Assembly: GCA_028282935.1 (NCBI GenBank)
Contig: JANQGU010000114.1
Location: 1 to 58,576 of the forward strand
Origin: Kiloniellales bacterium
GTDB taxonomy: Bacteria; Pseudomonadota; Alphaproteobacteria; Kiloniellales; JAKSBE01
Direction of reading: 5' to 3'
DNA: 58,576 bases
The stretch's first letter is position 1. Each line of letters begins with the position of its first letter. The notes beneath the pieces were generated by a model, which made no database searches, was not told the DNA's origin, and worked only from the letters and a program-made list of their open reading frames with translations. This document shows positions 7,868-46,086 of the stretch, piece after piece. Made by a program: the position numbers and the translations under genes.

Positions 7868-8374
7868 TCACCCGGCTTCGGCCGTCACTTCGACCGGCGG
7901 GCCGGACTTCAAGGTCTGGTAGACGACGCAGTAACGCTCGGTCAGCTTCATCAGGGTCGCGAGCTGTTCCTCGCTCAGGTCGCCGTCGATGTCGAAGGCG
8001 AGGCGGATGGCACGGAAGCCGACCGGCGCTTCGCGGTCGACGCCCAGGGTGCCGCGGAAGTCGAGGTCGCCCTCGGCCTTCACGGTCGCGTCGCGCAACG
8101 GCAGCTCCAGCGCCGTCGCCACCGCATTGAGGGTGACGCCCGCGCAGGCGACCAGGGCCTCCAGCAGCATGTCGCCGGAGCAGGCGTGGACCCCGCTGCC
8201 GCCGGTCGCCGGATGCAGGCCGGCCTCGATCAGCGCCCGGCCGGTATCGACCTTGCAGGTGACGCCCTGGCCCATCCGGCCCTCGGCCTTGAGGGTGACC
8301 ACCGCGGCCTCGGGGTCGTCCCGGTACTTCGCCTTGATCGGGGCCTGGGTCTCTTTCAGCTCTGCGGCGTCCAT
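7868..8374 (-). CDS. OsmC/Ohr family protein
   Basis: AGLHPATGG, CSGDMLLEALVACAGVT, EGDLDFRGTLGV and TERYCVVYQTL; start at MDAAELK after GAGG. Confidence 0.9.
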   Translation of the reverse strand: MDAAELKETQAPIKAKYRDDPEAAVVTLKAEGRMGQGVTCKVDTGRALIEAGLHPATGGSGVHACSGDMLLEALVACAGVTLNAVATALELPLRDATVKAEGDLDFRGTLGVDREAPVGFRAIRLAFDIDGDLSEEQLATLMKLTERYCVVYQTLKSGPPVEVTAEAG

Positions 8375-8651
8375 GCCTGCCTCCTCTGCTTCGGGCGCCG
8401 GCGTCGTCCCGGCCTTGCCGGGGCCGATGATGTGGCGTGCCTGGCACCGAGGCAAGGACCGATGAGCCGGCCGGGCGCCGCCGCGAAGCGCAGCGACGCG
8501 GGTCCGGCAAGATCGGGAGGCGCGGCACGGCCACACCCGACAGCCTGCGGGCGGTCGGGTGCGGTGTCGAGCGTCAGATGACGGGGCGCTTGAGAGGCTC
8601 TCCAGGATCGGTGCCGCAGGGCGGTGGCCCCCCAAGGCCCTCACGCTGGCG

Positions 8652-9668
8652 TCACTTCCAGTTCTCCTCCACCCAGCCGCAAACCTCCCGCCAGGCCTCC
8701 GTCTTCATGTATTCGCTCGTCCGCTCTTCGAGTTCGGCGACGTGCTCGTAGTCGTCGAGCGGGTAGGGTGCGTCGAGCGACACGTTGCCCCGGCAGAATG
8801 CCTCGCCCAGCAGCTTCTCGGCCTCGGCGGTGGCGCTGGTGGCCGTCGCGTCGAACATCAGGCTGACCAGCGCCATGCTCGGCACGTGCTCGCCCCACTT
8901 GCTCGGCCAAAGCCAGTTCTTCGCGCCCCAGCTCAGCGGCTTGTACTTCTGGAAGAGGGCGGGCGGGACGCCCTGGGGGTCATGTCCGGTGCCCAGAGAC
9001 AGGACGCGGATGTCCGAAAGGCCGTCGGCGAGCCCGCCGCCGATCACCTCGCTGACCGCGGTCATGGTTGGGTTGTTGGCGAAGAGGCCGCCGTCGACGA
9101 AGTACCCCAGCTCGTCCGATACCTCGTGCGGTGGAAAGTAGGTCGGGGCCGCGGAGGTCGCGAGCGCCGCGTCGACCATGCTCACGTTTCGGAAGCGGTT
9201 GTCGGGGAGGCTGGAGAGGGTGCAGGATCGCCAGGACAGCGTGTAGCCGTCCCATAGCTGGGCGGCGTTCACGATGACGATCTTATCGGAGTCCCGGAGC
9301 CGGTCGTCTCCGAGAAGCTCCTCGGCCAGCTTCTTCAGGCCGTCGGCCTTGTACTGGCAGGACCAGATGCCCGGGCCGGCCAGCAGCTCTTCCTCTTCCT
9401 CGCTGGGCTCGACTTGATCCGCTGTCTCCGCGAACACGCCGTTCGGCGTGAAGATCTCCGCTCCCTTCGTCTTGTAGATTTCCACGATCTCGTCGATCGG
9501 CTTCTCTCGGGCGAGACCCAGGGCGATCAGCCCACCGGTGGAGGTGCCGGCGAAGCCCTTCGCCTTGCCGATGAAGCCCGGGAAGGTGTCGTGCAGGTTC
9601 TGGATCAGAAGGGCGGTGATCAGGCCGCGGATCCCGCCGCCGTCGCAGCACAAGATGTTATGGGTCAT
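8652..9668 (-). CDS. Patatin-like phospholipase
   Basis: DGGGIRG oxyanion loop, GTSTG nucleophile, ATSAAPTYF and DGG catalytic Asp; GGAG SD. Confidence 0.93.
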   Translation of the reverse strand: MTHNILCCDGGGIRGLITALLIQNLHDTFPGFIGKAKGFAGTSTGGLIALGLAREKPIDEIVEIYKTKGAEIFTPNGVFAETADQVEPSEEEEELLAGPGIWSCQYKADGLKKLAEELLGDDRLRDSDKIVIVNAAQLWDGYTLSWRSCTLSSLPDNRFRNVSMVDAALATSAAPTYFPPHEVSDELGYFVDGGLFANNPTMTAVSEVIGGGLADGLSDIRVLSLGTGHDPQGVPPALFQKYKPLSWGAKNWLWPSKWGEHVPSMALVSLMFDATATSATAEAEKLLGEAFCRGNVSLDAPYPLDDYEHVAELEERTSEYMKTEAWREVCGWVEENWK

Positions 9669-9737
9669 TTCTTTCTCCTCTGGAGCCTGATCGCTTCACA
9701 CCGGCTGGGCATGAAGGATGAGCCAGCCTCCTGTTCG

Positions 9738-9848
9738 TCAGGACAGGTCAGATTTCACGGCGCAGGCCGGCTCGACCTGCGCCGATCTTGATCCAGGCCA
9801 GCCGCGGTGGATCGGGCGCCGCGGCCGGCCAACCTCGATGTGTCGCAT
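9738..9848 (-). CDS. Possible small precursor-like peptide MRHIEVGRPRRPIHRGWPGSRSAQVEPACAVKSDLS (36 aa)
   Basis: Translated by hand. Contains RRPIHR and QVEPA, resembling neighbouring precursors, but the SD is poorly spaced. Confidence 0.3.
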   Translation of the reverse strand: MRHIEVGRPRRPIHRGWPGSRSAQVEPACAVKSDLS

Positions 9849-9886
9849 TCCTGGTTCGGTTCGTTCGCCCACCGGGACCGGCAAAC

Positions 9887-10141
9887 TCAGAGTCCCCAAA
9901 GCCGCCGCTGGCCGGAGTAGGGCTGAGAGAAGGTTTCCCGAGCGACCGGGTCCGCCAAGACCCTGACCGCTATGTTGGGCTTCACGTAGCGGGGCGGAGC
10001 GCCGAAGGCGAAGGGCTTGGGGTCGACGCCCGTCCCCTGCGGCGGCCTGCGCACGGGTTCGGCGCCCGATGGCGTTGCGTCCGAGGGCCTCGGCGGGGAG
10101 CCGGGCTGCGGGCCGTTCGTGTTTCCTGGTTGCTCTGGCAT
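9887..10141 (-). CDS. Small protein (84 aa), possibly PatC-like accessory
   Basis: Co-oriented in the protease locus. The C-terminus GQRRLWGL recalls the RRGRIWA end of PatC/TenC/TruC proteins. Confidence 0.5.
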   Translation of the reverse strand: MPEQPGNTNGPQPGSPPRPSDATPSGAEPVRRPPQGTGVDPKPFAFGAPPRYVKPNIAVRVLADPVARETFSQPYSGQRRLWGL

Positions 10142-10194
10142 GGTCCTGGGCCTTTCTTCTGAATGGCGGTTGTCAATGGCTCGCTTGCTGCGGG

Positions 10195-10386
10195 CTAGCC
10201 CGTCGAGCCTTCGGCGCGGCGCAGCAGCGCCTGCCGCACGATCGGGTTGCGCTCCGCGATCTCGCTCATAATCCGGTCGAAGCCGACCGGATTGCTGAGG
10301 AAGGGTTTGTTTCCGGCGGCGCTGGGCTCGACGCTGCCCGTGGCGGCCGCGTTCGGGCCGGCTCGGGGCGTGCCTGTAAGTTGCAT
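10195..10386 (-). CDS. Small peptide (63 aa) with GSVEPS motif
   Basis: AAGGAG SD before ATG at 10386; MQLTGTPRAGPNAAATGSVEPSAAGNKPFLSNPVGFDRIMSEIAERNPIVRQALLRRAEGSTG. Confidence 0.7.
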   Translation of the reverse strand: MQLTGTPRAGPNAAATGSVEPSAAGNKPFLSNPVGFDRIMSEIAERNPIVRQALLRRAEGSTG

Positions 10387-10466
10387 GACGACTCTCCTTG
10401 TGGTCCTCGCTTGGCGGCGGGCGCGGCGTCCGGAGGGGGCCGAACGCCGCTCCCTCACACCGGGTT

Positions 10467-10625
10467 TCAGCCGCTCAAGGCACCTTTCACGGCGCCGATG
10501 AGCGCAGGCACGGCGATGCCGGCCAGGGCGCCCAGGAACGCCGGCTGGACACTGCCGACGACGCCGACCTGAGCCGTTCTGGCAGGTCCACGTTCGACAC
10601 CTTGGCATTGGATCGGCTTACGCAT
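10467..10625 (-). CDS. Putative RiPP precursor peptide 2 (52 aa)
   Basis: AGGAGG SD; MRKPIQCQGVERGPARTAQVGVVGSVQPA-FLGALAGIAVPALIGAVKGALSG; paralog of 10712-10867. Confidence 0.85.
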   Translation of the reverse strand: MRKPIQCQGVERGPARTAQVGVVGSVQPAFLGALAGIAVPALIGAVKGALSG

Positions 10626-10711
10626 TGCAGACCTCCTGGTAGCTTGAGAGAAGGGCGGGCGGAGCGACCCGGAGCAGCGGAGGCTCCGCCCTTGCACTCA
10701 GCGAGAGAGGG

Positions 10712-10867
10712 TCAGCCGAGCGCACCCTGCAGAGCGCCGAGAGCGGCGTTCTTGAGGACCGGCATAATGCTGCCGAGGAACGCCGGGTTGGCACCGCCGG
10801 CTACGGCGATCTGCGCCGTCTTGGCCGGGCCGCGCTCGACGCCTTCGCACTGGATTGGCTTACGCAT
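10712..10867 (-). CDS. Putative RiPP precursor peptide 1 (51 aa; not in ORF track)
   Basis: AAGGAG SD; hand translation MRKPIQCEGVERGPAKTAQIAVAGGANPA-FLGSIMPVLKNAALGALQGALG, ending in TGA at 10712-10714. Confidence 0.85.
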   Translation of the reverse strand: MRKPIQCEGVERGPAKTAQIAVAGGANPAFLGSIMPVLKNAALGALQGALG

Positions 10868-10993
10868 TGCGAGTCTCCTTGCGGTTGGAGAGGGAAGGAT
10901 GGGCGGAACCGTCCCGATCTGCGGAAAGCCCGCCCGCTCAAGGCCGGCACCGGGGTGCCGGCTCCCCGCGGCTGCCGCCGCGTGGGTTCTGTC

Positions 10994-13399
10994 CTAGAAG
11001 ATCGACCAGTTGCGCAGCGGTCCGACGGTCACCGGGACCACGTCGCTGACGTCGACGGTGTACTGGAAGACGTGGCGCGCCGTGGTCAGCGTCTCCGTCG
11101 GATTGAAGAAGGTCCAGGTCGCGTCCCAGCAATCCGAATCGGGCCGGCAGATCGTGCTCCGGTCCACCGAGACGGTGTCCAGGAACATCCCGCTGTGGGC
11201 CATTTCCTCGAAGATCTTCTTGGTGTTGTAGGCGTTGAACGCCGAGTAGTTCATCGCCCGGTCCTGCGGCGAGACGCCGACGTTGCGGAACTGGTTGTAG
11301 ATCCTCTCCAGGAATTCCTTGAAGTTGTCCGGCGGATCCTCGCCGGCGATGTCGGTGATGTTCCAACCGAACATGCCCCGCCAGACCGGCAGCAGTTGCG
11401 GGACCACGGTCCCGTTCATCAGCCGGACTTCGCCGTCGACGTAACCGGCCTGGGACACGCGCTCGACCGGCGGCTTCTTCTTGTCCTTCTTGGACTTGTC
11501 CTTCGGGTCCGGGGCAATCTGGCGGACATCGTCGATGCCGCTGATCGGCTCGCTGCACTCCTGCTGCCACAGCAGGGTCGCCAGCTCCATGTACATCGGC
11601 AGGCCGAAGGAACTATGGGGCTTGATCGCATAGATCGGGGCCGTGTCGATGTTGACCGTCCAGATCAGCGCGTTGGAGTCGGGGAAGTTGATCAGCACCT
11701 TGGTCTTTGGGTCCTTGTACAGGAGGTACTTGATCATGATTTGCGGGTTCCACGGCGCGGCGTAGTCTCCGCTTGAATCGTAGTGATCGGGATCGACCCG
11801 TTTCCGCCACTCCGCGATCGCCTGCACGAAGTAGTCGAAGCGGGCCTCGCTCTCGAAGTCGTAGAACAGCCGTCCGATCACGAAGACCGAGGACTCGCCG
11901 ATCGCCTGCGAGGGCTGGATGCCGGCGCAGCCGCAGGACTGGTTCGGCGCGACCGCCGCCGGCATTGCCGGGCCCGGCATGCCGCTGGGCCAGCCCTCCG
12001 CCGCCTGCGGCGCCACGGGCTGAAGGACGGGTGCCTGGGGTGCCGTCGCCGGCAGGGCGAGGCCCTGGGGCATCACGGGCGGCGGGCCCTGCACCTGGGG
12101 CGCCGTCTGCGCCGGCACCATGGCGGTGGCCGGGGCGGGCAGGGCCGCGGTCGTGGCGGGCGCCGGGGCCTCGGCGGGGGATGCTGTGCCCGACGCGGGC
12201 GCGCTCGTCGCTTCTGCGGCGCCGGCGTCGGAGGGGGCGACCGGGGGGTGACCCGGGTCCGAGGGCAGGGCGGTCGAGGAGCCGACCCCGGACAGCGGAG
12301 CGCCGTCAGGGCCGAGGATCGACGCCGGAGCGTGACCAGGTGTCTGGTAATTCGCGGACATGGCGTTTGCCTCTCCTGTGAGCTGGTTGTGGGACAGGGA
12401 CGATTCGGACAGAGCGCCGCCTGCCGCGCTCGGCAGGGGCGACGTCGACGGCGTCGCAGTTGCGACGACACGCGGCGTTGGGTTTTCCCGTGGTTGCGAC
12501 GCGCCGCTCGGAGCGGTTCGCTGGAGCGCCGCCATCGCCGCCTCCACGTCGAGGACGCCGACGGGGCCGAGGTCCGGCGCGAACCGCGGATCGAGCGGCG
12601 CCGCCGTGTCGAGCAGCAGTCGGCGGATCGCAGGGGCGTCGGACTCGTCGCCGAGCTGGCGGCTCAGGCTGAGGAGCAGCGCGGCGACCGCGGTGACGAT
12701 GGGAGTCGCGAAGCTGGTGCCCGACCGCGGGCTGACGCTGCCACCGGGGCCGGCACCGGGAATGGCGTCGCCCGGCGCCAGGATGCCGTTTTCACGGTAG
12801 GCGTCGCCGTAGTTGCTGAACGCCATGGGCTTGCCGTCCCGGTCGCAGGCCCCGACGGCCAGGACGCTCGGCAGCGCGGCCGGCACATGGAGGCAACGGC
12901 AGCCGTCGTTTCCCGCCGCCGCGACGAGCAACGCGTCGCGCTGAACGCATTCTTGGACGGCCGCCTCCAGGAAGCGGTCGCCCTGTCCGGTCGGCGTGAA
13001 CTGGCCGCCGCTGATGTTGATGAGCGTCGCGCCGCTGTCGAGCGCGTGGTGAATGGCCCGCGCCAAGGTCGTCTGCGCGCAGCTCACCAGGTTCCCCTCG
13101 GAGTCTTCCCGGTAGACCGGGATGCAGAGGAGCGTGCAACGGGGCGCGATCCCGGCGACCGGCGACCCCGGCTGACCGGCAATGACGCTGGCGACATGGG
13201 TGCCGTGCGTCGAGCGGGTGAGATCGTACTGGCTCGGCTGGACGATCAGCGGCGCGCGGTCGCCGGGGGAGGTCCCGAGGAACGCGGGGTGGTTCGCATC
13301 CACGGGGCCGTCGATGACCGCGATCCGGATATCCGGCGAGCCGCCGGCGGTTTGCTCCATGAGCGCGCTCAGGCCCGGAATGTCGGTGACGGGAGTCAT
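10994..13399 (-). CDS. PatA/PatG-family (cyanobactin maturation-type) S8 subtilisin-like protease with C-terminal PatG-type DUF
   Basis: Triad motifs IAVIDGPVD, HGTHVAS and SGTSFATP; AAAGNDGCRCLHVPAA; Pro/Ala linker; C-terminal IGRLFYDF, WTVNIDTAPIYAIKP, RNVGVSPQDRAMNYSA, CRPDSDCWD and YTVDVSDVVPVTVG. Confidence 0.92.
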   Translation of the reverse strand: MTPVTDIPGLSALMEQTAGGSPDIRIAVIDGPVDANHPAFLGTSPGDRAPLIVQPSQYDLTRSTHGTHVASVIAGQPGSPVAGIAPRCTLLCIPVYREDSEGNLVSCAQTTLARAIHHALDSGATLINISGGQFTPTGQGDRFLEAAVQECVQRDALLVAAAGNDGCRCLHVPAALPSVLAVGACDRDGKPMAFSNYGDAYRENGILAPGDAIPGAGPGGSVSPRSGTSFATPIVTAVAALLLSLSRQLGDESDAPAIRRLLLDTAAPLDPRFAPDLGPVGVLDVEAAMAALQRTAPSGASQPRENPTPRVVATATPSTSPLPSAAGGALSESSLSHNQLTGEANAMSANYQTPGHAPASILGPDGAPLSGVGSSTALPSDPGHPPVAPSDAGAAEATSAPASGTASPAEAPAPATTAALPAPATAMVPAQTAPQVQGPPPVMPQGLALPATAPQAPVLQPVAPQAAEGWPSGMPGPAMPAAVAPNQSCGCAGIQPSQAIGESSVFVIGRLFYDFESEARFDYFVQAIAEWRKRVDPDHYDSSGDYAAPWNPQIMIKYLLYKDPKTKVLINFPDSNALIWTVNIDTAPIYAIKPHSSFGLPMYMELATLLWQQECSEPISGIDDVRQIAPDPKDKSKKDKKKPPVERVSQAGYVDGEVRLMNGTVVPQLLPVWRGMFGWNITDIAGEDPPDNFKEFLERIYNQFRNVGVSPQDRAMNYSAFNAYNTKKIFEEMAHSGMFLDTVSVDRSTICRPDSDCWDATWTFFNPTETLTTARHVFQYTVDVSDVVPVTVGPLRNWSIF

Positions 13400-13819
13400 C
13401 GGACCCGACCGTCCTGAGACAGTCGCGGCAGTTGAAACTGGTGCTTCAACCGAAAACGAACGGGCGGGACGGTGCCACTCAAGCTATCATACCTGAGGGT
13501 TTGTCGATGATATCTCGCGTCGAAAACGCTCAGATAGAGAGTCTTGGAGCGCAAGTAGTTCGTGCGCGCTTCCATATCTTCACTGCCCGCCAACATGGAA
13601 ATAACCTCTTCTTAAGTCACTTCTATTTTTAGATGTATGGATAATAAATACAACCTAAGCGTGTTGTGCTGGGCGCAAGCCGCCAGGCCTCGTCTTGCGC
13701 AGAGCGCAATCCGGCGGCGCGCCTGGGCGCAAGTCTGCGCGAATTCGGTAACGGCGAAGAGCCGCTTTCCGTCGCGGCGATCGGCGTTGCTCTTGGAAGA
13801 CCTTGGGAGAAAACTCGGA

Positions 13820-14176
13820 TCAGTCCGGCGCAATCGCCTCGATGGCACGATTGAAATGAAATACGAAACCCGACGGCAAAGACCTGGTAAGGCTTAAAAG
13901 CGTTCTTTCTTCGTGGTTCACCGTGAGTGAAATATGCTGATCCATATTGCCTCTGGCCAGAAGCAGCCAATCGGCCGAAATGTCGAGGGCTCTGCAGAGC
14001 TTGATCACGTTTTCGGTGGCGATCGGCGCGCCTCTTCTCCAGCGACTGATCGCGCTTTCGTTGACGCCGATTTCAATCGCGAGAGCGTACATTTTCTTGA
14101 TCTTGCGGATGCGGAGGGCCTCCTCCAGCCGTTGGCCCCGACCTGCATCCTGTTCGCTCGGTGAGGTTCCCCCCAT
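13820..14176 (-). CDS. XRE-family HTH transcriptional regulator
   Basis: LAIEIGVNESAISRWRRG...KLCRALDISADWLL; lies in an AT-richer segment. Confidence 0.85.
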   Translation of the reverse strand: MGGTSPSEQDAGRGQRLEEALRIRKIKKMYALAIEIGVNESAISRWRRGAPIATENVIKLCRALDISADWLLLARGNMDQHISLTVNHEERTLLSLTRSLPSGFVFHFNRAIEAIAPD

Positions 14177-14720
14177 GCTACCGCCTCTCACCAAACCGCT
14201 GCGACGTCCGCCCGAACTCCCGACAAGAAAAGACGTTCCCCAAGGCCCGCCGCCGCGGCTCCGGGTGCCTGGCCGGCCGCGTCCGTTTCTGCCGCCCGGA
14301 CGCGGCTTTTGCCGACAAGGCTCCTTCCGACGCCGCCATTCGGTCTCACGTTTCTATTATCCAAGTCGTAGTAGCAAAGACCTAAAGAAGAGCACGTTAT
14401 AGATATGAATTGCAATCTGAGGATGTATCTACCATTAACATTGTGAGAGGTTTTTCTTCTATAGATTGTAGTTCGACAGGCCTTTGTTGGGGGTCTTGCC
14501 TTCTTGGCCGGCCCCTTCGCGGCGAGAGGCACGCTCAAGGTGCGGAGCCGGATGCTAGCGCGGGCTCTGTTCTTAGCCGGAGGGACGGCGTCTTCCTCGA
14601 TCCTCGCGGCAAACCCGATTGGCGGCGAGCGACCTCGAAAGGGCGAGGGCCATCGCACAGCGCGCCAAAATCGGTTACCTCTTATGTATCGACCGAACGC
14701 GCGCCAAGGAACCGAGCCCG

Positions 14721-15155
14721 ATGCCCAGTGCCTGCATGAGACTCTTTGCCCTCGTTCTTGCGACCCCGATTCTCCTTTGCGGCGCAGGGACCCCTGTCCG
14801 CGCCGACAGCCACGCCGACGACTTGCTCGGCGCCGAGGACCTCACGCCGGAGGCCATCTTTGCGCTGATGGACAAGGACGGCAGCGGGACCGTGACCAGC
14901 GACGAGCTGCGCACCTACAAGATGGGGATCTTCTTCAAGCTCGATCGCGACCGCGACGGCTCGCTGTCGCGCGGCGAGCTCCCGGGCTTGAGCGACGCGG
15001 AGTTTCAGGCGATGGACCGGGACGGCGACGGCCAGGTCTCGGGTTTCGAGTTCAACCAGTCCAGGGTGACCGCGATCGAGGCGATGGACCTGGACGGCGA
15101 CGGCGTCGTCACCCTGGAGGAGTTCAAGAGCTATCGCAGCGAAGCGGCAAAGTGA
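14721..15155 (+). CDS. Secreted EF-hand protein
   Basis: Signal-like N-terminus; four DxDxDG-type loops (DKDGSG, DRDRDG, DRDGDG, DLDGDG). Confidence 0.85.
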   Translation: MPSACMRLFALVLATPILLCGAGTPVRADSHADDLLGAEDLTPEAIFALMDKDGSGTVTSDELRTYKMGIFFKLDRDRDGSLSRGELPGLSDAEFQAMDRDGDGQVSGFEFNQSRVTAIEAMDLDGDGVVTLEEFKSYRSEAAK

Positions 15156-15198: not shown

Positions 15199-16161
15199 AT
15201 GAGTCGCTATCAACGCTCCTCGGTTGAGCTGCCGAAACCGGATCGTCAGTGGCTCCAGGCCCCGGTCCTGACCGGGGTTGCCATCGCCTTGATCGCGCTG
15301 GCCAGCGGGGGCACCGAGTTCGTCTTCGGGCTGCTGATGCTGGCGGTCATACTCGGCGGTGTCGGGACCTTCTACCTGCTGTTTCCAGGCAGCCGTTTCT
15401 TCTCCATCTCGCTGGCCAACTTCCTGGCCGTCTACGCCTGCATCTACGTCTTCGTGCTCGAGACCAACTTCGTCGAGGCGTCCAAGCTTGCCGGCAGGAC
15501 CGGTTTCGTCCTGCCGATCTTCGCCTTCATCGCGGGCGCCCTGCTGCGCCGACGCCTGATCCGGGACATCATCGCGGCACAGCCTAGCCTGGCCGCCGAC
15601 GACGTAGCGAAGGGCCTGCTGTGGCTGCTGCCGCTCGCCGTCATCGGCCTGTTCAGCTTCGCCGTTCCGATGCTCGCCTGGGGCGGCGAGGAGGAGAGCC
15701 TGGGACTCCTGATCTCAATGGGCGCGGTCGCGCTGATCGTCTTCCTGCTCAGCCCCAGGGTCAGCGTCTTCTTGCTCCTCGCCGGGCTGATGTTCGAGCG
15801 CTTCTTCGACCGCGTCGTCGGACTCGTGGTGCCGGCCTTTGCCTTCCTGACCTTCTACTCCATGCTGGTGATCCTCTTCGCCTGCGTCTACCGCATCGTC
15901 GACCTCTACGTTCCGGGGGCGCACTTCAACTTCAACGGCACGCCCTATCAGATCGACTTCTCGGACGGCCTGTACTTCTCGATCGTCACCCTGTCGACCC
16001 TCGGCTACGGGGACATCGCACCGGCGAGCGACCTGGTCCGGGCCCTGACGGCGATCGAGATCGTCGGCGGCGTGCTGCTCCTGCTCTTCGGCTTCTCCGA
16101 GATCATGCGCTACGCGCATGACCGGGAAGGCCCGGCCGGCGACCGTCCGGCGGAGGATTAG
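15199..16161 (+). CDS. Potassium channel family protein
   Basis: Multiple TM helices; pore motif YFSIVTLSTLGYGDIAP. Confidence 0.88.
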   Translation: MSRYQRSSVELPKPDRQWLQAPVLTGVAIALIALASGGTEFVFGLLMLAVILGGVGTFYLLFPGSRFFSISLANFLAVYACIYVFVLETNFVEASKLAGRTGFVLPIFAFIAGALLRRRLIRDIIAAQPSLAADDVAKGLLWLLPLAVIGLFSFAVPMLAWGGEEESLGLLISMGAVALIVFLLSPRVSVFLLLAGLMFERFFDRVVGLVVPAFAFLTFYSMLVILFACVYRIVDLYVPGAHFNFNGTPYQIDFSDGLYFSIVTLSTLGYGDIAPASDLVRALTAIEIVGGVLLLLFGFSEIMRYAHDREGPAGDRPAED

Positions 16162-19100
16162 CCGCCGGCCTTGGCGGGTGTCTTGACCGCGAAGAAGATT
16201 GCGTAGAGCACCGGCACGAGCAGCAGGGTCAGCACCGTGCCCAGGGCCAGGCCGAAGGCGATCACGCAGGCCATCGAATAGAACAGCGGATCGACCAGGA
16301 TGATCAGCGGCAGCACGCCGAGGATCGTCGTGGTCGCCGACATCAAAATCGGCCGGAAGCGCGAGACCGCGGCGATCACGACGGCCTCGTGGTCGGAAAG
16401 CCCGGCCGCCCTCTGGCTGTCGATCCGGTCGATCAGGACGATCCCGTTGTTGATGATGACGCCGGCCAGGCTGAGCAGGCCCAGGATGCCGAAGAAGTCG
16501 AAGGGCGCGCGCATGATGATCAGGCCGACCAGGGCGCCGGCGAAGGCCATGGGAATGGTCAGCATGATGATGCTCGGCCGGCGGAAGGAATTGAACTGCC
16601 AGATCAGCAGGACCACGATGCCGATGATGCAGGCCGGCATGTAGCGGAACAGCTTTTCGTTGGTCTCCTCGGAGGTCTCGATCTCGCCGCCGACCTCCCA
16701 GCGGTGGCCGGGCTCGAGGCCCAGGGCCTCGATCGTGGGCGTCACGGCCGCCAGCAGCTCCGGTGCTTTCAGGTGCTGATGGCGGGCCTCCACGGTGACC
16801 GTGCGCTCCTGGTTGTAGCGGGCGATCCGGCTGTACTCCCATTCGCCTCCGAAGTCGGCGACCTGGGGCAGGGGGACCATCACCCCGCGGGCCGAGGAGT
16901 AGACGTTGACGTTCCAAAGGTCGCCGAGCGTCTGGCGTTCGTCCTCGACCGCGCGAAAGACGACGGGGATCGCGGTGTCGCCCTCCCGATAGTCCGTGAC
17001 CTGCTGACCGTCCATGAAGGCGTTCAAGGACATCGCGATCTCCCGCGACGTCACCTCCGCCCGTCGGGCGCGGGACTGGTCGACGACCACGTTGACCTTC
17101 AGGACCTTGTTCTCCCAGTCGATCAGGGCGTAGTCGATGCCCGGCATCTCCTGGAAGGCCCGCTCCAGTTCCTGCCCCTTTGTGTAGATGTGCTCGGCAT
17201 CGATGCCGGTCAGGCGGATCTCGAGCCAGCCCGGCTCGGAGGAGCCCATCCACATCCTCTTGACCTGGGATTCCACGTCGGGGAAGGACTCGGCCAGGTA
17301 GGTCTTGCTGCGCTTGATCACCTCGGGCACCTGATCGGCAGTCTCCGTGTTCACCACCAGGAAGCCGCGGTGGGGGTCCGGGTCCTTGGGCGAGAGCGAG
17401 AGGAAGAAGCGCGGTCCGCCGGTCCCGACATAGGCGATGCTGCTGGTCACCTCGGGGTTCGCCTCCGCGTCGCCGAGCCAGGCGGCATAAGCCTGCACCA
17501 CCTCGTCCGAGGCCTGGATGCGCGACCCGGCGGGAAGGTCGAGATAGACGAGGAACTGGTTGCGGTCGCTCGGCCCGAAGAACTCCCGGACCAGGGAGGT
17601 CGAGGCGTAGCCGGCCAAGGCCAGCAGCACCAGGGTCGCGGCGAGGGTGACGTAGCGCTGCTTGATCGCGGTCTCCAGGATGCCGCGGTAGCTGCGGTAG
17701 AAGCCGCTGTCGTAGGGGTCCTCCTCCGCCTTCGCGCCGCCCGCGGGCGCCTTGACGACGAGGTACCAGTTGCACATCGCCGGGGTCATGTACATCGACA
17801 GCAGCCAGGAGGCCAGGAGCAGGATGATGACGACCATCGGCAGCGCGAAGGCGTATTCGCCCGTCTGGCCGTCGATCATGAGCATCGGCAGGAAGGCCAG
17901 GATCGTGGTCAGCGAGGAGGTCAGCAGGGGCACCGCCAGGGTCCGGCCGGCGGCGAGGCAGGCCTCGCGCCGTTCCTGGCCGCGTTCCATCCGGGCCCGG
18001 ATGTCCTCGGTCACCACGATCGCGTTGTCGACCAGCATGCCCAGCGCCACGATGGCGGCGACGATCGACACCCGGTGCAGCTCGATCCCCATGAGCCACA
18101 TGACGATCAGGCCGAGCAGCATGGTGATCGGCACGAAGGAGCCGACGATCAGCCCGGCGCGCAGGCGCAGGAACAGGATCACCACCAGCAGCACCGTCGC
18201 CAGGGTCTGGTAGACGTTGCTGAGTGCGCCGTCGACCGCCACCTGGACCAGGTCCGGCTGGAAGGTCGCGTATTCCATCACGTAGCCGACCGGCAGCCCC
18301 GCCTCGAGCGCCTTGATCTTGGCGGTGAGCTTCTCGCCGAAATCCACGCTGTTGACCCCGGGCACGATCGAGAGGCTGATCACCACCGTCGGCCTGCCGT
18401 TGTAGTAGGCAAGGCTGGACGGCGGATCGACGTAGCCGCGCTCGACCGAAACGACCTCGGTCAGGTTGACCAACTGGTCGGAGTCGGGGATCGAGATCAG
18501 CACCGCCTCGATGTCTTCGATGCTGGTGAAGTTGCCGGAGGGCTGGATCACGATCTCCTTCTCTTCGACGTCGACGGTGCCGCCGGGCAGGATGACGTTC
18601 TGCCTCTGCAGGGTGGTGAGGACGTCGTAGATGCTGATCCCGAACTCGGCGAGCTTGGCGTTGGAGAACTTGAGGTAGACCTGCTCGTCCTGGACCCCGA
18701 AGAGCTCGACCTTGCGGATTCCCTTCAGCTCGTAGAGCCGGTCGCGCACGTCGCGGGCGACCAGGCGCATCTCGGCCATCGAGAAGCCGTCGCTCCAGAG
18801 CGCGATCGTGGCGACCGCCGTCAGGCCGAACTCGTCGTAGACCAGGGGACCGAGGGTGCCTTCCGGGAGCTGCGGCCGGACGTCGTCCATCTTGTTGCGC
18901 AGCCGCTTCCAGATCGCCTCCAGGTCCTCGTACTCGTCGCGCAGGACGGCGTGGATGATGGAGACGCCGGTCTTGCTGTCCGAGGTGATCTCGTCGATCT
19001 CGGGCATGGTCCGGATCTCCTCCTCGATCCGGCGGGTGATCAGGTCCTCGACCTGCGGCGGTTCCATGCCCGGGAAGGCCGCCGTGATCACCGCCTCGCG

Positions 19101-19229
19101 GATGACGATGGGCGGATCCTCCAGCCGCGGGAACTGGACGAAGAGGTAGATCCCCACCAGGACGATCCCGACGATCGCCGTGATCGTCAGCCGGCTGGTG
19201 TTGATGGCGAAGGACGTGATCCAGGACAT
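16158..19229 (-). CDS. RND efflux permease (AcrB/AcrD/AcrF family)
   Basis: 1023 aa; GMLVDNAIVV, GVIINNGIVLID and RFRPILMSATTT. Confidence 0.95.
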   Translation of the reverse strand: MSWITSFAINTSRLTITAIVGIVLVGIYLFVQFPRLEDPPIVIREAVITAAFPGMEPPQVEDLITRRIEEEIRTMPEIDEITSDSKTGVSIIHAVLRDEYEDLEAIWKRLRNKMDDVRPQLPEGTLGPLVYDEFGLTAVATIALWSDGFSMAEMRLVARDVRDRLYELKGIRKVELFGVQDEQVYLKFSNAKLAEFGISIYDVLTTLQRQNVILPGGTVDVEEKEIVIQPSGNFTSIEDIEAVLISIPDSDQLVNLTEVVSVERGYVDPPSSLAYYNGRPTVVISLSIVPGVNSVDFGEKLTAKIKALEAGLPVGYVMEYATFQPDLVQVAVDGALSNVYQTLATVLLVVILFLRLRAGLIVGSFVPITMLLGLIVMWLMGIELHRVSIVAAIVALGMLVDNAIVVTEDIRARMERGQERREACLAAGRTLAVPLLTSSLTTILAFLPMLMIDGQTGEYAFALPMVVIILLLASWLLSMYMTPAMCNWYLVVKAPAGGAKAEEDPYDSGFYRSYRGILETAIKQRYVTLAATLVLLALAGYASTSLVREFFGPSDRNQFLVYLDLPAGSRIQASDEVVQAYAAWLGDAEANPEVTSSIAYVGTGGPRFFLSLSPKDPDPHRGFLVVNTETADQVPEVIKRSKTYLAESFPDVESQVKRMWMGSSEPGWLEIRLTGIDAEHIYTKGQELERAFQEMPGIDYALIDWENKVLKVNVVVDQSRARRAEVTSREIAMSLNAFMDGQQVTDYREGDTAIPVVFRAVEDERQTLGDLWNVNVYSSARGVMVPLPQVADFGGEWEYSRIARYNQERTVTVEARHQHLKAPELLAAVTPTIEALGLEPGHRWEVGGEIETSEETNEKLFRYMPACIIGIVVLLIWQFNSFRRPSIIMLTIPMAFAGALVGLIIMRAPFDFFGILGLLSLAGVIINNGIVLIDRIDSQRAAGLSDHEAVVIAAVSRFRPILMSATTTILGVLPLIILVDPLFYSMACVIAFGLALGTVLTLLLVPVLYAIFFAVKTPAKAGG

Positions 19230-19265: not shown

Positions 19266-20417
19266 CTACTGCGCGAGCAGCTTCACCTCCTGGCCGTCCG
19301 CCAGGAAGGTGACCCCCGCGATCGCCACGACGTCGCCCGCGGTCACGCCCTCGGTGATCACCGCCATGTTGTCGCGCACGCCGGCCGCCTTGACCGGCGT
19401 CTTCTTGACCGCCGAGGTCTCGGGGTCGAAGACGAAGACGTAGCCTTCCCGCGCCGCCTCGGGGTTCGGGCCCGGGGCGATGGCGGAGATCGGCACCAAG
19501 TAGGCCTCGCTCGCGTCGTCCCCGCCCAGGATCAGGCTGACCTCGGTGGTCATGCCCGGCAGCGCGTTCTCGTTCTGCCCGAGGATCGCGACCTTGACCG
19601 GAAAGACGTTGCCGGTCTCGGCCTGCGTGCCGATCTCGGAGACCCTTCCCTCCAGGGTGCCGATCTGTCCGGTCAGGAAGCGGACCTCCGACGGCAGCCC
19701 GAGGTTGAGGTCGCGGACGGTGCCCTCCGGCACCGAGATCTTCACCTCCATGGCGCCCTCGACGTAAACGTCGAAGATGGTCTGGCCGCGCGAGACCTCG
19801 GCGAAGCTGTCGACGTAGCGCTTGGCGACCACCCCGTCGAGGGGGGCGAGCAACTCGGTCTTCTCCAGGTCGCGACGTGCCAGGTTCAGCTCTGAGATTC
19901 GGAACCTCACCTGGTTGCGGGCGCTCTCGTAGGCGGCCAGGGTTTGTTCCTGGACCGACTTGGCGACCCACTTCTTCTTGTAGAGGGCGTCCTGCCGCTC
20001 GAACTCGGTCTTCTTCTCGGCTTCGTCGGCGCGCGCGCGGCCCAGCGCGGCTTCCGCCGACTCCACGCTCAGCTCGAAGGTCTGGGTGTCGAGCAGGGCG
20101 AGGACGTCGCCCTTCTTGAAGCGGTCGCCGACGTCGACCTTGAGATCCTTGATGTTGCCGGAGACCTCGAAGCTCAGCGCGGAGGTGTCCACCGCCTCCA
20201 CCAGGCCCGGGAACTTCCGGAGCTGACCCGAGGCCCGTTCCGAGATCGTGATGGTCTTGATCGCCCGGACCTGCGTCAGAACTTCGGGCTGCTCTTCCTC
20301 GCAGGCCGCGAGGCCGAGGGCGGCCAGCAGCGTTGCCGCCGCCAAGGCGAGACCTCGCCCGTGGCGCCGCCGCCGAGGCGACTGGGTCGTGACCGATGCC
20401 GCGTTAGGAACCATCAC
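19266..20417 (-). CDS. RND membrane-fusion (periplasmic adaptor) lipoprotein
   Basis: LAAC lipobox, LSFEVSG, VDVGDRFKKGDVLA and LLAPLDGVV. Confidence 0.92.
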   Translation of the reverse strand: MMVPNAASVTTQSPRRRRHGRGLALAAATLLAALGLAACEEEQPEVLTQVRAIKTITISERASGQLRKFPGLVEAVDTSALSFEVSGNIKDLKVDVGDRFKKGDVLALLDTQTFELSVESAEAALGRARADEAEKKTEFERQDALYKKKWVAKSVQEQTLAAYESARNQVRFRISELNLARRDLEKTELLAPLDGVVAKRYVDSFAEVSRGQTIFDVYVEGAMEVKISVPEGTVRDLNLGLPSEVRFLTGQIGTLEGRVSEIGTQAETGNVFPVKVAILGQNENALPGMTTEVSLILGGDDASEAYLVPISAIAPGPNPEAAREGYVFVFDPETSAVKKTPVKAAGVRDNMAVITEGVTAGDVVAIAGVTFLADGQEVKLLAQ

Positions 20418-41458: not shown

Positions 41459-42154
41459 ATGAAGGATCCCAACGTCTACATCATGCTGATGTCGAGCCTG
41501 CCCAGTCCCGAGGCGCTCTTCCTCGCGAAGCGGCCGCCGCTGTCCCGCCTGAAGCTCGACCGGCGCCTGCGCGTCCTCGCGCCCGAGCACGCGCGGGCGC
41601 TGCGCCTGACCGAGAAGGTCGTGCACTGGGGCGACATCCCGCTCGCGGCCACGGACGCCGAGCTCGTCGCCCGGGCGAAGATGGCGGCGCGGGAGATCGA
41701 GAACGAGACCGTCCGGCTGCTGATCCGCGATCGGCTCGAGATCCGCACCTGCATGGCGGCCCTGCGCCGGCGCCTGCGTGGCGAGCCGGCGCCGGCCTCC
41801 GGAACCGACTGGGGTTTCGGTCGCTGGACGCGCCACATCGCGCGCAACTGGACGGAAACGAGCTTCCGCCTGGACGCGGTCTTTCCCTGGCTGCGCGAGG
41901 CCGACAAGCTCCTGAAGGATGGCGAGAGCCTGCCGCTGCAACGCTTGATCCTGCAGCAGGCCTGGAAGAGCGCGAAGCGCCGCAAGGGCGCGCACCAATA
42001 CGACTTCGAAGCCGTCGTCGTCTACGTGCTCATGTGGAACATCGTCGACCGCTGGGGCCGCTACGACGGCGAGAAGGCGGTCGAGCGCTTCGATCGGCTG
42101 GCCGAGGCCGCGCTGGGCGACCACGCAAAGCTGTTCGGGGAAGGACGAGCCTGA
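41459..42154 (+). CDS. DUF2764-like V-ATPase-associated protein (subunit C-like)
   Basis: Y.LMSSLP N-terminus and FEAVVVYVL.W.I.DRW; lies between subunits E and A. Confidence 0.78.
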   Translation: MKDPNVYIMLMSSLPSPEALFLAKRPPLSRLKLDRRLRVLAPEHARALRLTEKVVHWGDIPLAATDAELVARAKMAAREIENETVRLLIRDRLEIRTCMAALRRRLRGEPAPASGTDWGFGRWTRHIARNWTETSFRLDAVFPWLREADKLLKDGESLPLQRLILQQAWKSAKRRKGAHQYDFEAVVVYVLMWNIVDRWGRYDGEKAVERFDRLAEAALGDHAKLFGEGRA

Positions 42155-44157
42155 TGGCCAGCGACGACAAGCCAAAAGACGCCGCCGGTGCTGGGAATGC
42201 GGCGAAGGCCCGCAAATCGGCCCGCAAGCCGGCGGCGGCCCTGCCCATCAAACCCAAGACCAGCAGGCCCAAGCCCAGCAGGCCCAAGACCAGTAGGGCT
42301 GAGATCGGCAAACCGCGGGAGCGCCAGATGGTGGAAGCAAACCTGCAGGCGACGGCGCGCGTGGTCGCCGTCCAGGACGACCTCGTCGAGATCGAGGCCC
42401 TGGACGACCTCGAGGGCAAGCCCGCCGACCTGGTCAAGAACGAGGTGGTCTTCATCTGCCCCAGGAAGGTCAACGAGCTGGGCGAGCAGGAGAAGCTGAA
42501 GGCGGAGGTTCTGAGGGTTCGCGGGCGGACCGCCGATGCGCAGGTCTACGAGGACACCGCGGGCGTGGCCATTGGCGACGCGGTGGAGCAGAGCGGCGAG
42601 ATGCTTGCCGTCGAGTTGGGGCCCGGGCTCCTCGGCCAGGTCTACGACGGGCTGCAGAGCCCTCTGCACGATCTCGCCACGCGCTACGGCATCTTCCTGC
42701 CGCGCGGGGTGGCCACGGCGCCCCTGGACCCCAAGGCCAAATGGTCCTTCGTACCAAAGGTGAAGGTGGGCGCCACGGTCGCCGCCGGCGACACGATCGG
42801 GACCGTCCAGGAAGGCCGCTACACGCACAAGATCATGGTGCCTTTCGGCTGGCCGGGCGAATACAAGGTCTCCTGGATTCAGGAAGGGAACTTCACGGTC
42901 AGCGACACGGTCGCCCAGGTCGAGGACAAGGCGGGCCGCGCGCAGGACATCCGGCTGGCGCAGAAGTGGCCGGTGCGCCGCGCGGTCGACTCCAACCTGA
43001 CGCAGAGCCGGAGGTCGGAGCGGCTCTATCCCGACGAGCCGCTGGTGACGACCCAGCGCATCATCGACACCTTCTTCCCGGTGGCGCGGGGCGGGACGGC
43101 CTGCATTCCCGGGCCCTTTGGCGCCGGCAAGACGGTGCTGCAGAACATGATCTCGCGCTATTCCGCGGTCGACGTGGTCATCGTCGTGGCCTGCGGCGAG
43201 CGCGCCGGCGAGGTGGTGGAGACGATCAACGAGTTCCCCCAGATGAAGGACCCGCGCACGGGCGGCTCCCTGATGGACCGCACCATCATCGTCTGCAACA
43301 CCTCCTCGATGCCGGTGGCGGCCCGGGAAGCCTCGATCTACACCGGCCTGACGCTCGGCGAGTATTACCGGCAGATGGGCTTCGACGTCCTGATGATCGC
43401 CGACTCCACCTCCCGCTGGGCCCAGGCCATGCGCGAGACCTCGGGCCGGCTGGAGGAGATTCCCGGCGAGGAGGGCTTCCCGGCCTACCTCGAATCCTCG
43501 ATCAAGAGCGTCTACGAGCGCGCCGGCGTGATCAGGACCAACGACGCGTCGGTCGGCAGCCTGACCATGATCGGCACCGTGTCGCCGGCGGGCGGCAACT
43601 TCGACGAGCCGGTGACCCAGGCGACCCTGTCGACGGTCAAGGACTTCCTCGGCCTGTCCTACGATCGCGCCTACAAGCGCTTCTATCCGGCGGTCGACCC
43701 CCTGATCTCCTGGTCGCGCTACTCGGCGCAACTGGAGAGCTGGTTCGACAAGAACATCGAGGCCGGCTGGACCAAGCGGGTCTCGGAGATGCAGGACCTC
43801 CTGCACAAGGGCGAAGGCGTGTCGCAGATGATGCAGGTGACCGGGGAGGAGGGCATCACCACCGAGGACTTCGTGGTGCAGCAGAAGGCGCTCTTCCTCG
43901 ACATGGTCTACCTGCAGCAGGACGCCTTCGATTCGGTCGACGCCTCGGCATCCCTGGAACGCCAGAAGCTGACCTTCAACAAGGTCTACGACCTGGTGAC
44001 GCGCAGCTACGGCTTCGCCGACAAGGAGGCGGTCCGGGATTACTTCACCAAGCTCACAGGCTTGTTCAAGAACTTCAACTATGCCGCGGAGGACTCGCCG
44101 GACTACGACGGCCTCTTGAAGCAGATCGACGACCTCGCCGCCACGGCGCCCCACTAG
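42154..44157 (+). CDS. ntpA: V/A-type ATPase subunit A
   Basis: [38 protein letters not shown] and [10 protein letters not shown]; basic N-terminal extension. Confidence 0.96.
42253..42297 (+). repeat. 3 x 15-bp tandem repeat encoding [15 protein letters not shown]
   Basis: cccaagaccagcagg / cccaagcccagcagg / cccaagaccagtagg. Confidence 0.85.
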
Positions 44158-44286
44158 CGCAGCTCGCGCTCACGTGAACGCGGATGAGCTGCTCCCTCGC
44201 ACTCCTGTATGTCTGCAGATCTTAGTGCAAGAGTTGTGCGTTAGGAGGAAGAACAGGCTGCCGCCGCAGGCCTCTCTCTTACCCGT

Positions 44287-45543: not shown

Positions 45544-46086
45544 TCAAATGTCGGTTTACGGATGAGAAAACTATGCCCTTAATGTTGAAAGTCACGGCGG
45601 ATGGAAGTTTCCTCTGGCACTGCAGGCCATGGTAAAAATGGATGCTTTTCAGCAAGTCATATATGAGGCGACTCTTCGGTGCCTTTGCCTTGTCGTCGAT
45701 GAATCAGGGGCCTTGGGCTCATCATCCTGGCCAGCGGCCAAACGCTGCGCATAACAGACCGTGGGGATGTTTGAACCTGGTCCGATCAGCAAAGAGCTGC
45801 CGAATTCAGTTGCTTGATGGGAGGCGCCCACACACGAATTGCGATCGCCCGAAAAGGGGGAAGTCCTAAAAGCGCTGAATCTTCACTATGGCCTGGTTCG
45901 TTCTTGACCTACGTCCTTAGTGCAGACAACAACGCGTGCGATGGCAGCCATCACCGAAGCAACCCCTTACTCCTTTCCAGATTGCTGTTCCTTGTAGCCG
46001 GTCCGCCAGCAGATGCTGGACGGGGCAACTACAAGTAGGTGTCGCCACTAGGTGATTCGGTTCACTTCGTCTGATTTTTTTTTTAG

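Follow-up and report, generated by a model that had tools for sequence, protein, structure and literature searches.

A conserved alphaproteobacterial cassette joins a lone PatA-type protease to a pair of leader-bearing peptides, candidate precursors of linear membrane-active helices

The DNA analysed here, referred to as the window, is the 58,576-nucleotide contig JANQGU010000114.1 of a Kiloniellales bacterium, and the subject of this report is a pair of small genes on its minus strand, pepA and pepB, that follow a gene for a PatA-type leader protease. pepA (10712..10867) encodes 51 amino acids and pepB (10467..10625) encodes 52, the ATG of the latter lying within a longer GTG frame (10467..10697). 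A first-pass annotation had proposed these two open reading frames (ORFs) as paralogous precursor peptides with a strong Shine-Dalgarno sequence each. Both ORFs and their translations proved exact, letter for letter, and the Shine-Dalgarno sequences are indeed strong: that of pepA is AAGGAGA, with a 7-nt spacer to the ATG, and that of pepB is AGGAGG, where the spacer has 6 nt. Residues 1-29 of either peptide constitute the leader (minus strand, 10781..10867 in pepA and 10539..10625 in pepB), which ends in G-G-A-N-P-A in pepA and in G-S-V-Q-P-A in pepB. The remainder is the predicted core, consisting of 22 amino acids in pepA (residues 30-51; 10712..10780, minus strand, including the stop codon) and 23 in pepB (residues 30-52; 10467..10538, minus strand, including the stop codon).

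Selection on the protein sequence had been claimed from a codon count, which could be reproduced codon by codon: over codons 1-19 the two genes differ by 8 synonymous changes (codons 4, 6, 9, 11, 12, 13, 14 and 18) and 2 replacements (E8Q and K16R). The ratio of nonsynonymous to synonymous substitution rates (dN/dS, Nei-Gojobori) between pepA and pepB was 0.22 for residues 1-29 and 0.72 beyond residue 29, and it amounted to 0.04-0.28 in comparisons with the orthologues of both genes on two other contigs, here called L018 and L015, which bears out the claim. When the whole assembly was scanned (5.2 Mb in 460 contigs, 81% complete), pepA and pepB recovered each other at an expect value (E) of 2.9e-15, the next-best match having an E of 0.39. 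Thus, the assembly scan, the Shine-Dalgarno sites, the codon pattern and the dN/dS values together indicate that pepA and pepB are real genes under selection and not a chance feature.

Relatives of the two peptides were collected in two ways. A word-indexed search of a 5.8-billion-protein set gave 27 candidates, 26 of which matched at E <= 0.01, and these 26 proteins of 51-58 amino acids (E 3.6e-24 to 3.1e-9) form the close family. A-type tails in this family end in L-K-N-A-A-x-G-A-L-Q-G-A-L-G, and B-type tails carry G-A-[VM]-[KR]-G-A. The B-type peptides form one group (support 96/100) that holds the copies of both the window and L015, so that the duplication into A and B types is older than these two lineages. 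On three more contigs (of 5024, 5978 and 3559 bases) the A and B types likely occur together, an indirect assignment since they were paired by base count. When 1.84 billion representatives were searched with a HMMER profile, 29 matched at E <= 0.001, and after removal of two repeat proteins of 543 and 220 amino acids the remaining 27 form the wide family, the members of which have the leader in common and tails that are unrelated. Many of them carry a variable N-terminal extension before R-x-P-I-Q-C-E-G, and the leader consensus is R-x-P-I-Q-C-E-G-[VI]-E-R-G ... G-S-V-N-P-[AQ].

In the alignment of the close family (28 relatives) the mean fraction of the top residue was 0.92 for residues 1-29 and 0.59 thereafter, and gaps occurred in 1 of 29 columns versus 15 of 30. 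For the wide family these fractions were 0.70 and 0.16, with gaps in 1 of 29 columns versus 62 of 67, and its tails, 18-52 residues long, are rich in insertions and deletions. Conservation falls, and insertions and deletions begin, after P-A at residue 29, which is where the first-pass annotation had placed the boundary between leader and core; the boundary coincides with both changes, and cleavage at this point is what we infer from it. The family alignments also support its description of the two peptides as paralogues that resemble precursors, in which the leader is conserved and the hydrophobic tail varies. Such a combination is the pattern predicted where an enzyme recognises the leader and the product attached to it can vary freely.

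Directly upstream of pepA lies the gene for the PatA-type leader protease of the S8 family (10994..13399, minus strand; 801 amino acids). According to Pfam, the protein is composed of a subtilase domain (residues 24-267), a low-complexity linker, PatG_D (505-614) and PatG_C, a domain whose function is unknown (DUF; 691-798). It scores 502 bits against the NCBIfam model TIGR03895 for PatA/PatG family cyanobactin maturation proteases, the cut-off of which is 421. The closest solved structure is the N-terminal cyanobactin protease PagA (4h6w, E 5e-81, residues 4-277), other close structures are those of PatA (4h6v, 3zxx and 3zxy), and for the C-terminal part the match is to 4uvq, a structure of the PatG DUF. 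The PatG macrocyclase 4aks reached 151 bits only, in an alignment that starts at residue 54. With the PADLOC models, matches were confined to generic subtilases. Since D30, H68, N164 and G227-T228 are invariant among 40 aligned homologues and S229 is at least 90% conserved, the catalytic triad is intact and the enzyme should be active, and since hydropathy revealed no hydrophobic segment at its N-terminus, it is probably cytoplasmic. The dN/dS of the protease between loci was 0.21-0.29. Five matches to TIGR03895 were found in the 81%-complete genome, of which only this protease passes the cut-off, the other four being generic subtilase domains, and a second cyanobactin protease was not found in it. 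The first-pass annotation had named a lack of leader homologues near PatA-like proteases as something that would refute it, and this condition does not refute it: a PatA-type protease adjoins pepA in the window as well as in L018 and L015. As a separate observation, the low-complexity linker ends in C489-x-C491 followed by P-S-Q (P496), residues 489-496 (approximately 11914..11937, minus strand), of which C489, C491 and P496 are nearly invariant in the 40 homologues; Cys7 of the leader is likewise kept, in 87-89% of the peptide sequences. A predicted complex of pepA with the protease domain and the DUF domains gave a score of 0.01 and a mark of 0.32, and was used neither for nor against any interpretation.

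The protease and the two peptides belong to a cassette of six genes on the minus strand, in the order regulator, protease, pepA, pepB, orf3 and orf4. The first gene (13820..14194, minus strand) encodes an XRE/Cro-C1-type helix-turn-helix regulator of 124 amino acids (Pfam HTH_3, 1.2e-07), which matched PADLOC models through its helix-turn-helix only; pepA and pepB matched none of them. orf3 (10195..10386, minus strand; 63 amino acids) has its own Shine-Dalgarno sequence and contains the motif G-S-V-E-P-S, and orf4 (9887..10141, minus strand; 84 amino acids) is the last element that the window and L015 have in common. By scanning public collections with the peptide alignment, we found L018, a 14-kb metagenome contig with a pepA that is 92% identical to that of the window, and L015, a 43.6-kb contig from an Alphaproteobacteria metagenome-assembled genome with a pepA that is 82% identical. 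The gene order in both is that of the window, with the regulator homologue upstream of the protease, the A-type peptide before the B-type peptide, and then orf3 and orf4. The synteny between L018 and the window extends past the cassette, at 85% nucleotide identity. The DNA similarity of L015 to the window is confined to 14143..9896 and its flanking genes differ, suggesting that a unit of approximately 4.3 kb has moved, or has been kept, independently of its neighbours. A third candidate locus, L016 from Paenibacillus, was spurious, the match falling inside a 226-aa ORF.

Purifying selection between the loci was seen in all six genes, with dN/dS values of 0.08-0.19 for the regulator and, for orf3 and orf4, in their C-terminal parts only. 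In orf3 the C-terminal part gave 0.30-0.47 and the N-terminal part was about neutral, and in orf4 the C-terminal 54 residues gave 0.17-0.28 and the N-terminal 30 approximately 1. A homologue search with orf3 returned three matches, which were its own three contigs, and the protein-atlas scores of orf4 were all below 0.9. The orf3 motif, which reads G-A-V-E-P-S in L018, resembles the cleavage motif of the leaders in a weak and short hhalign match (E 0.01, probability 4%), and R-R-P-P-Q-G-x-G-V-D-P, which opens the constrained C-terminal part of orf4, resembles the N-terminal motif of the leaders in an equally weak and short one (E 0.016, probability 3%). These likenesses may be meaningless, or both products may also be handled by the protease. 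The architecture of leader and tail, the linkage to the protease, the conserved cassette and the A/B pair are directly visible at these loci.

The spacers within the cassette are structured. The one between the protease stop codon and pepA (10868..10993, minus strand) contains three stem-loops followed by the Shine-Dalgarno sequence, with a minimum free energy of -62.5 kcal/mol (z -2.2), and its counterpart in L015 folds alike (z -3.7). The spacer between pepA and pepB (10626..10711, minus strand) contains a G+C-rich hairpin with a perfect stem of 9 bp and no U-tract, and in L015 a different sequence forms a longer stem at the equivalent place (z -3.4). Compared with the window, the stem-loop spacers of L015 (9871..10000 and 10178..10257) thus retain structure and not sequence. 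Hairpins of this type, G+C-rich and without U-tracts, might stabilise or attenuate the transcript. An Rfam scan of 9500..14600, which includes the spacer between the protease and pepA, gave no match, and a promoter and terminator scan of 9600..14400 yielded no promoter-like site and 3 terminator-like ones where 3.3 were expected.

The cassette is rare. A scan of 100 relative genomes for the peptides yielded nothing convincing, both genomes of the same genus being without a match; five weak matches among these relatives (E 0.015-0.08), all inside frames of 92-657 amino acids, were judged to be chance. A peptide-profile scan of genomes of the class gave one weak match in 400, inside a 235-aa frame, and when another 400 genomes of the class were sampled for the protease family, none had it at E <= 1e-60. 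Eleven sequencing runs with the DNA are labelled as coral, coral-reef, marine or marine-sediment metagenomes, and one more is unlabelled; no RNA run is listed among them. Beyond these, a wide-family cluster that occurs on 565 contigs bears the annotation 'MULTISPECIES: hypothetical protein [Bradyrhizobium]', and Bradyrhizobium also has close homologues of the protease (45% identity, approximately 800-820 amino acids). In four metagenomic cases peptide and protease matches lie on contigs of equal base count (3979, 11989, 5978 and 8964), which points to linkage only indirectly. The protein-atlas clusters nearest to pepA are unnamed proteins of 49-57 amino acids from Actinomycetota and Cyanobacteriota (0.89-0.92), and can be taken as a lead only.

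According to a 2023 review (PMC10885120), the cleavage site of PatA-like enzymes lies behind G(L/V)E(A/P)S. The leader ends of the window, G-G-A-N-P-A and G-S-V-Q-P-A, are like this site in the V, the P and the position, and do not match the consensus; a cut after P-A is our best-placed guess. A tblastn search of plasmids with a Bradyrhizobium protease gave 11 records (Streptomyces 6, Acaryochloris 3, Gloeothece 1 and Gloeocapsa 1), five of which were examined. On the Gloeothece plasmid the cluster is canonical and has, besides two proteases, PatB, PatC, a heterocyclase-type gene and an oxidase. At the other four loci a single PatA-type gene is followed by small ORFs. Two Streptomyces plasmids have four and five of these behind the PatA-type S8 gene, with P-x-Q-x-P-P-[IV]-x-R, the canonical site G-[VLA]-E-[AS]-x and short hydrophobic or Trp-rich tails. 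On Acaryochloris marina pREB2, 70 nt after the lone protease gene, there is an unannotated ORF of 62 amino acids (L024 6999..7187, plus strand) with a leader that by eye is like that of the window, the end G-G-V-Q-P-S and a Cys-rich tail. The plasmid of Gloeocapsa PCC 7428 has an unannotated ORF after its lone protease as well (L023 7918..8223, plus strand), with a similar N-terminal motif and a Cys-rich tail; its match to the prenylated-cyanobactin precursor model was weak (E 0.061). Homology of these leaders with those of the window is likely rather than proven. A tblastn search of plasmids with a distant peptide of the family gave no match. In both Streptomyces clusters the final small ORF (84-95 amino acids; L022 8780..9067 and L025 9239..9493, both plus strand) seems by eye to represent a further type shared by the two, with a similar Cys/Trp-containing end and no NCBIfam match; the one in L025 starts in the manner of L-P-V-Q-G-A-A-I-E-R.

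The tails of pepA and pepB are rich in Gly, Ala and Leu and differ from each other. For the pepA core the mean Eisenberg hydrophobicity was 0.49 and the hydrophobic moment 0.25, which is reached by 7% of shuffled sequences; for the pepB core these values were 0.65 and 0.18 (16% of shuffles). Strict GxxxG motifs occur once in the pepA core and three times in the pepB core, and the central Pro is at least 90% conserved in both the close and the wide alignment. AlphaFold2, run with a 28-row alignment, modelled pepA as a continuous helix over residues 28-50, with a predicted local distance difference test (pLDDT) score of 67-71, and pepB showed faint composition-type matches to glycine-zipper proteins (E 0.1-0.15). 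Among 25 family cores (two of them identical) 14 had a moment that was reached by at most 2% of shuffles, with moments up to 0.49 and charges from -1 to +2. The family as a whole looks like a set of small membrane-seeking helices, with the window pair at its hydrophobic, GxxxG-rich extreme. The first-pass annotation had compared the cores with amphipathic antimicrobial peptides of the amphibian type, and this part of its proposal finds little support in the window, in view of the low moments, a charge of +1 and the high mean hydrophobicity, whereas distant members are clearly amphipathic. Because the window cores are weakly amphipathic, the resemblance is closer to helices of glycine-zipper proteins or two-peptide bacteriocins than to cationic frog peptides.

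The reading that we prefer, with a probability of roughly 55%, is that pepA and pepB are ribosomal precursors in a 'PatA-only' system in which leader removal gives linear membrane-active helices. The co-oriented and tightly packed cassette would provide the regulator, the subtilase, both precursors, orf3 and orf4. The cytoplasmic protease would recognise the 29-residue leader with its N-terminal R-K-P-I-Q-C-E-G-V-E-R-G, and cut after V/A-[NQ]-P-A, the putative counterpart of the cyanobactin N-terminal recognition sequence. As the stop codon of each ORF directly follows the tail and a macrocyclase is lacking, the predicted products are linear peptides with free ends, of 22 (A) and 23 (B) residues, that start with F-L-G. 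The released peptides would be hydrophobic, Gly/Ala-rich helices with the conserved central Pro and GxxxG, which would most likely enter membranes, either singly or as a pair of A and B, in a bacteriocin-like or surfactant-like manner. In this scheme we infer the cleavage and where exactly it falls, the lack of any further modification, and also export, target and role.

Several findings weigh against this reading. The putative site has N or Q in place of the consensus E, and A or Q in place of S, and pepA has A instead of V or L four positions before the putative cut. Neither peptide matched the precursor models of Pfam and NCBIfam (e.g. TIGR04446 and NF042906) at E up to 10, and the Streptomyces leaders, colinear with the family profile of the window over 29 columns, aligned at an E of 0.09 and a probability of 0.6%. 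The likeness of P-x-Q-x-x-x-V-x-R to PatE/PatB that had been noted in the first pass is thus weakly supported: the motif recurs wherever small ORFs stand behind a lone PatA-type gene, but precursor models do not match and the profile similarity is weak. The two window cores are not significantly amphipathic and have a charge of only +1, and the mean pLDDT of the peptide fold model is 62, which is low confidence. orf3 and orf4 have no membrane segment by hydropathy, and no family match in library scans or PADLOC. An exporter, immunity or modification gene is absent from the cassette in the window, L018 and L015, and two YcaO-domain genes are present elsewhere in the genome (contig C1 18612..19562 and contig C104 10163..11125, approximately 279 bits each). 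The loci with DNA number three, of which the window and L018 are close kin at the nucleotide identity given above. Finally, the Bradyrhizobium contigs with the peptide and those with the protease share no base count.

The YcaO genes make modification in trans conceivable, and the alternative that comes nearest, which we nevertheless consider improbable, is that pepA and pepB are precursors of ribosomally synthesised and post-translationally modified peptides, the cores of which are further modified or cyclised by enzymes encoded outside the cassette instead of being released as plain linear helices. According to two reviews (PMC4663559, PMC2854353), cyanobactin pathways normally pair PatA with tailoring enzymes and a macrocyclase. 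The genome, which holds the two YcaO genes, is only 81% complete, and orf3 and orf4 are conserved and without known function. On the other hand, the genome holds no second protease at the TIGR03895 level, the ORFs end with the tail and hence have no C-terminal recognition sequence, each core has a single Ser and no Cys or Thr to heterocyclise, and the same six genes occur in a different genomic context in L015.

The peptides might also remain uncleaved, as tail-anchored membrane proteins with 29 cytoplasmic N-terminal residues that, for instance, bind or regulate the protease or its DUF domains. We regard this as quite unlikely. It would agree with the N-terminal part being the most conserved, including the Cys kept in 87-89% of sequences, with the transmembrane-like hydropathy of the pepB tail (Kyte-Doolittle 19-residue maximum 2.0) and with a cassette that is without an exporter. 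However, the same maximum is 1.48 for pepA, under the usual transmembrane threshold, the tails of the wide family (18-52 residues) are indel-rich, often contain Asp or Lys and are amphipathic instead of uniformly hydrophobic, and the neighbouring gene is of a dedicated leader peptidase type. An equally slim chance is left to a quorum- or competence-like circuit without membrane damage, in which the released peptides or the orf4 product would be signals sensed via the XRE regulator, for although this regulator is the first gene in all three loci, the C-terminal stretch of orf4 is hydrophilic and strictly conserved, and conservation of the A and B cores within the close family is fair (0.59), the regulator has only 124 amino acids and no detected peptide-binding repeat domain, the Streptomyces loci carry another regulator type (BTAD), and the core variability of the wide family (0.16) better fits arms-race or surface-active products than a receptor-matched signal.

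On the downstream side of the cassette lies a gene for a patatin-like phospholipase of 338 amino acids (8652..9668, minus strand; Pfam Patatin, 1.1e-24), which adjoins the cassette only in the window and in L018 and probably falls outside the unit. It matches a PADLOC phospholipase effector with 188.6 bits and the NCBIfam model CBASS_lipase with 175.6 bits, under the cut-off of 200. A role in a cyclic-oligonucleotide-based antiphage signalling system (CBASS) was considered and rejected, as no cyclase domain was present among the ORFs scanned on its far side, where the adjoining ORF (7868..8644) is OsmC-like. The genes at the other end of the cassette are an EF-hand protein (14619..15155, plus strand), which is also found beside the L018 cassette, a potassium-channel-type protein (15199..16161, plus strand), and a resistance-nodulation-division pump of the AcrB family (16158..19229, minus strand) with its membrane-fusion partner (19266..20417, minus strand). 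These neighbours are other transcription units and no link with the peptides was seen. Elsewhere in the window, the G+C content of 44001..46000 is 0.56 compared to approximately 0.67 for the remainder; by eye only, a 418-aa ORF at this place (44287..45543, minus strand) resembles a methyltransferase of the cyclopropane-fatty-acid-synthase type, and the ORF beside it (42034..44157, plus strand) an ATPase catalytic subunit.

A wider interpretation can be put forward tentatively, and with far less confidence than the preferred one. PatA-only cassettes could represent an unrecognised class that spans phyla, in which one cytoplasmic cyanobactin-type protease may mature a few otherwise unmodified helical peptides. 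Alphaproteobacteria (cultured Bradyrhizobium among them), Streptomyces and the plasmids of cyanobacteria would then have the logic of the leader in common. Given the cleavage-site motif in orf3 and the N-terminal recognition motif in orf4, the protease of the window may process four products, two of them hydrophobic and membrane-active and the other two, from orf3 and orf4, hydrophilic and possibly acting as an antidote or signal. A bolder version would see in the release of the hydrophobic pair, gated by the protease, a switch that disrupts the membrane of its own cell, next to a CBASS-type phospholipase gene.

No description of the peptide family was found in the open literature, subscription journals and supplements being outside the scope of that search, and this route to linear membrane-seeking peptides is apparently undescribed. 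If the cleavage is true, it would be a two-component route, a leader and one protease, to linear helical peptides of 10-30 residues, and peptide engineering would gain another pair of leader and protease. A function would also be given to the PatA/PatG-family proteases of Bradyrhizobium and to 'hypothetical' ORFs of 50-70 residues, many of them unannotated, and bacteria from soil and from corals would become a source of candidate peptides with antimicrobial or surface activity.

When set beside known membrane-active peptides, the window cores differ most simply from the frog-type cationic antimicrobial peptides, since they miss the high moment and the charge of about +2 or more. Phenol-soluble modulins are similar in length, helicity, near-neutral charge and occurrence as tandem paralogues, and the distant members of the family share their strong amphipathicity. 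These modulins are leaderless, keep their formyl-Met and need the Pmt exporter, whereas the window peptides have a 29-residue leader, a dedicated protease, cores of low amphipathicity and no ATP-binding cassette (ABC) exporter in the cassette. In class IIb two-peptide bacteriocins, of the lactococcin G and plantaricin type, leader removal yields an unmodified active peptide pair, and the adjacent A and B peptides, kept paired in all three loci, with their hydrophobic GxxxG helices, resemble this arrangement. Unlike in class IIb, the leader in the window ends in P-A and not in a double glycine, a PatA-type subtilase replaces the ABC exporter with C39 peptidase, the cassette has no recognisable immunity gene, and the core charge is only +1. 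Linear cyanobactins have 3-5 residues, are prenylated or methylated and bear thiazoles, and the cyanobacterial clusters that make them keep their tailoring enzymes, which the window cassette does not have. As described in a review (PMC4663559), those of the aeruginosamide/viridisamide type are linear products of PatA-type N-terminal proteolysis, as is predicted here.

The closest comparison is with the cyanobactin pathways themselves (pat, tru and pag). Common to both are a TIGR03895 protease with the domain order S8, linker and PatG_D/PatG_C DUF, and precursor genes behind the protease, several per cluster, with a conserved leader and a variable core. The motif at the leader end resembles the N-terminal recognition sequence without matching its consensus, being V-[NQ]-P-[AQ] here and G(L/V)E(A/P)S in cyanobactins (PMC10885120). 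Cyanobactin cores are cyclic and have 6-20 residues, whereas those described here have 22-29 and are predicted to be linear, and the precursors of the window contain one core and no C-terminal recognition sequence of the AYDG type. PatB and PatC family genes occur in nearly all cyanobactin clusters, where they are non-essential; orf4 of the three loci and orf3 of the window gave no match to TIGR04220 or other models, compared with 130 bits for the Gloeothece PatB. A PatG macrocyclase is missing from the cassettes of the window, L018 and L015, as are a heterocyclase, a prenyltransferase, PatB and PatC, and the host of the window is not a cyanobacterium. The system resembles the first half of a cyanobactin pathway, and we do not count it as a member because the second protease, the C-terminal recognition sequence, the match to precursor models and the host all fail. 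In the reviews (PMC4663559, PMC2854353), the cyanobactin machinery is confined to cyanobacteria and always includes two proteases; the sole related item that the literature search turned up is a remark on a cyanobactin peptidase gene in Roseomonas oryzae (PMC8776678). The window differs from the picture in the reviews on both counts: here, the N-terminal protease stands alone, with a leader-peptide family of its own, in Alphaproteobacteria.

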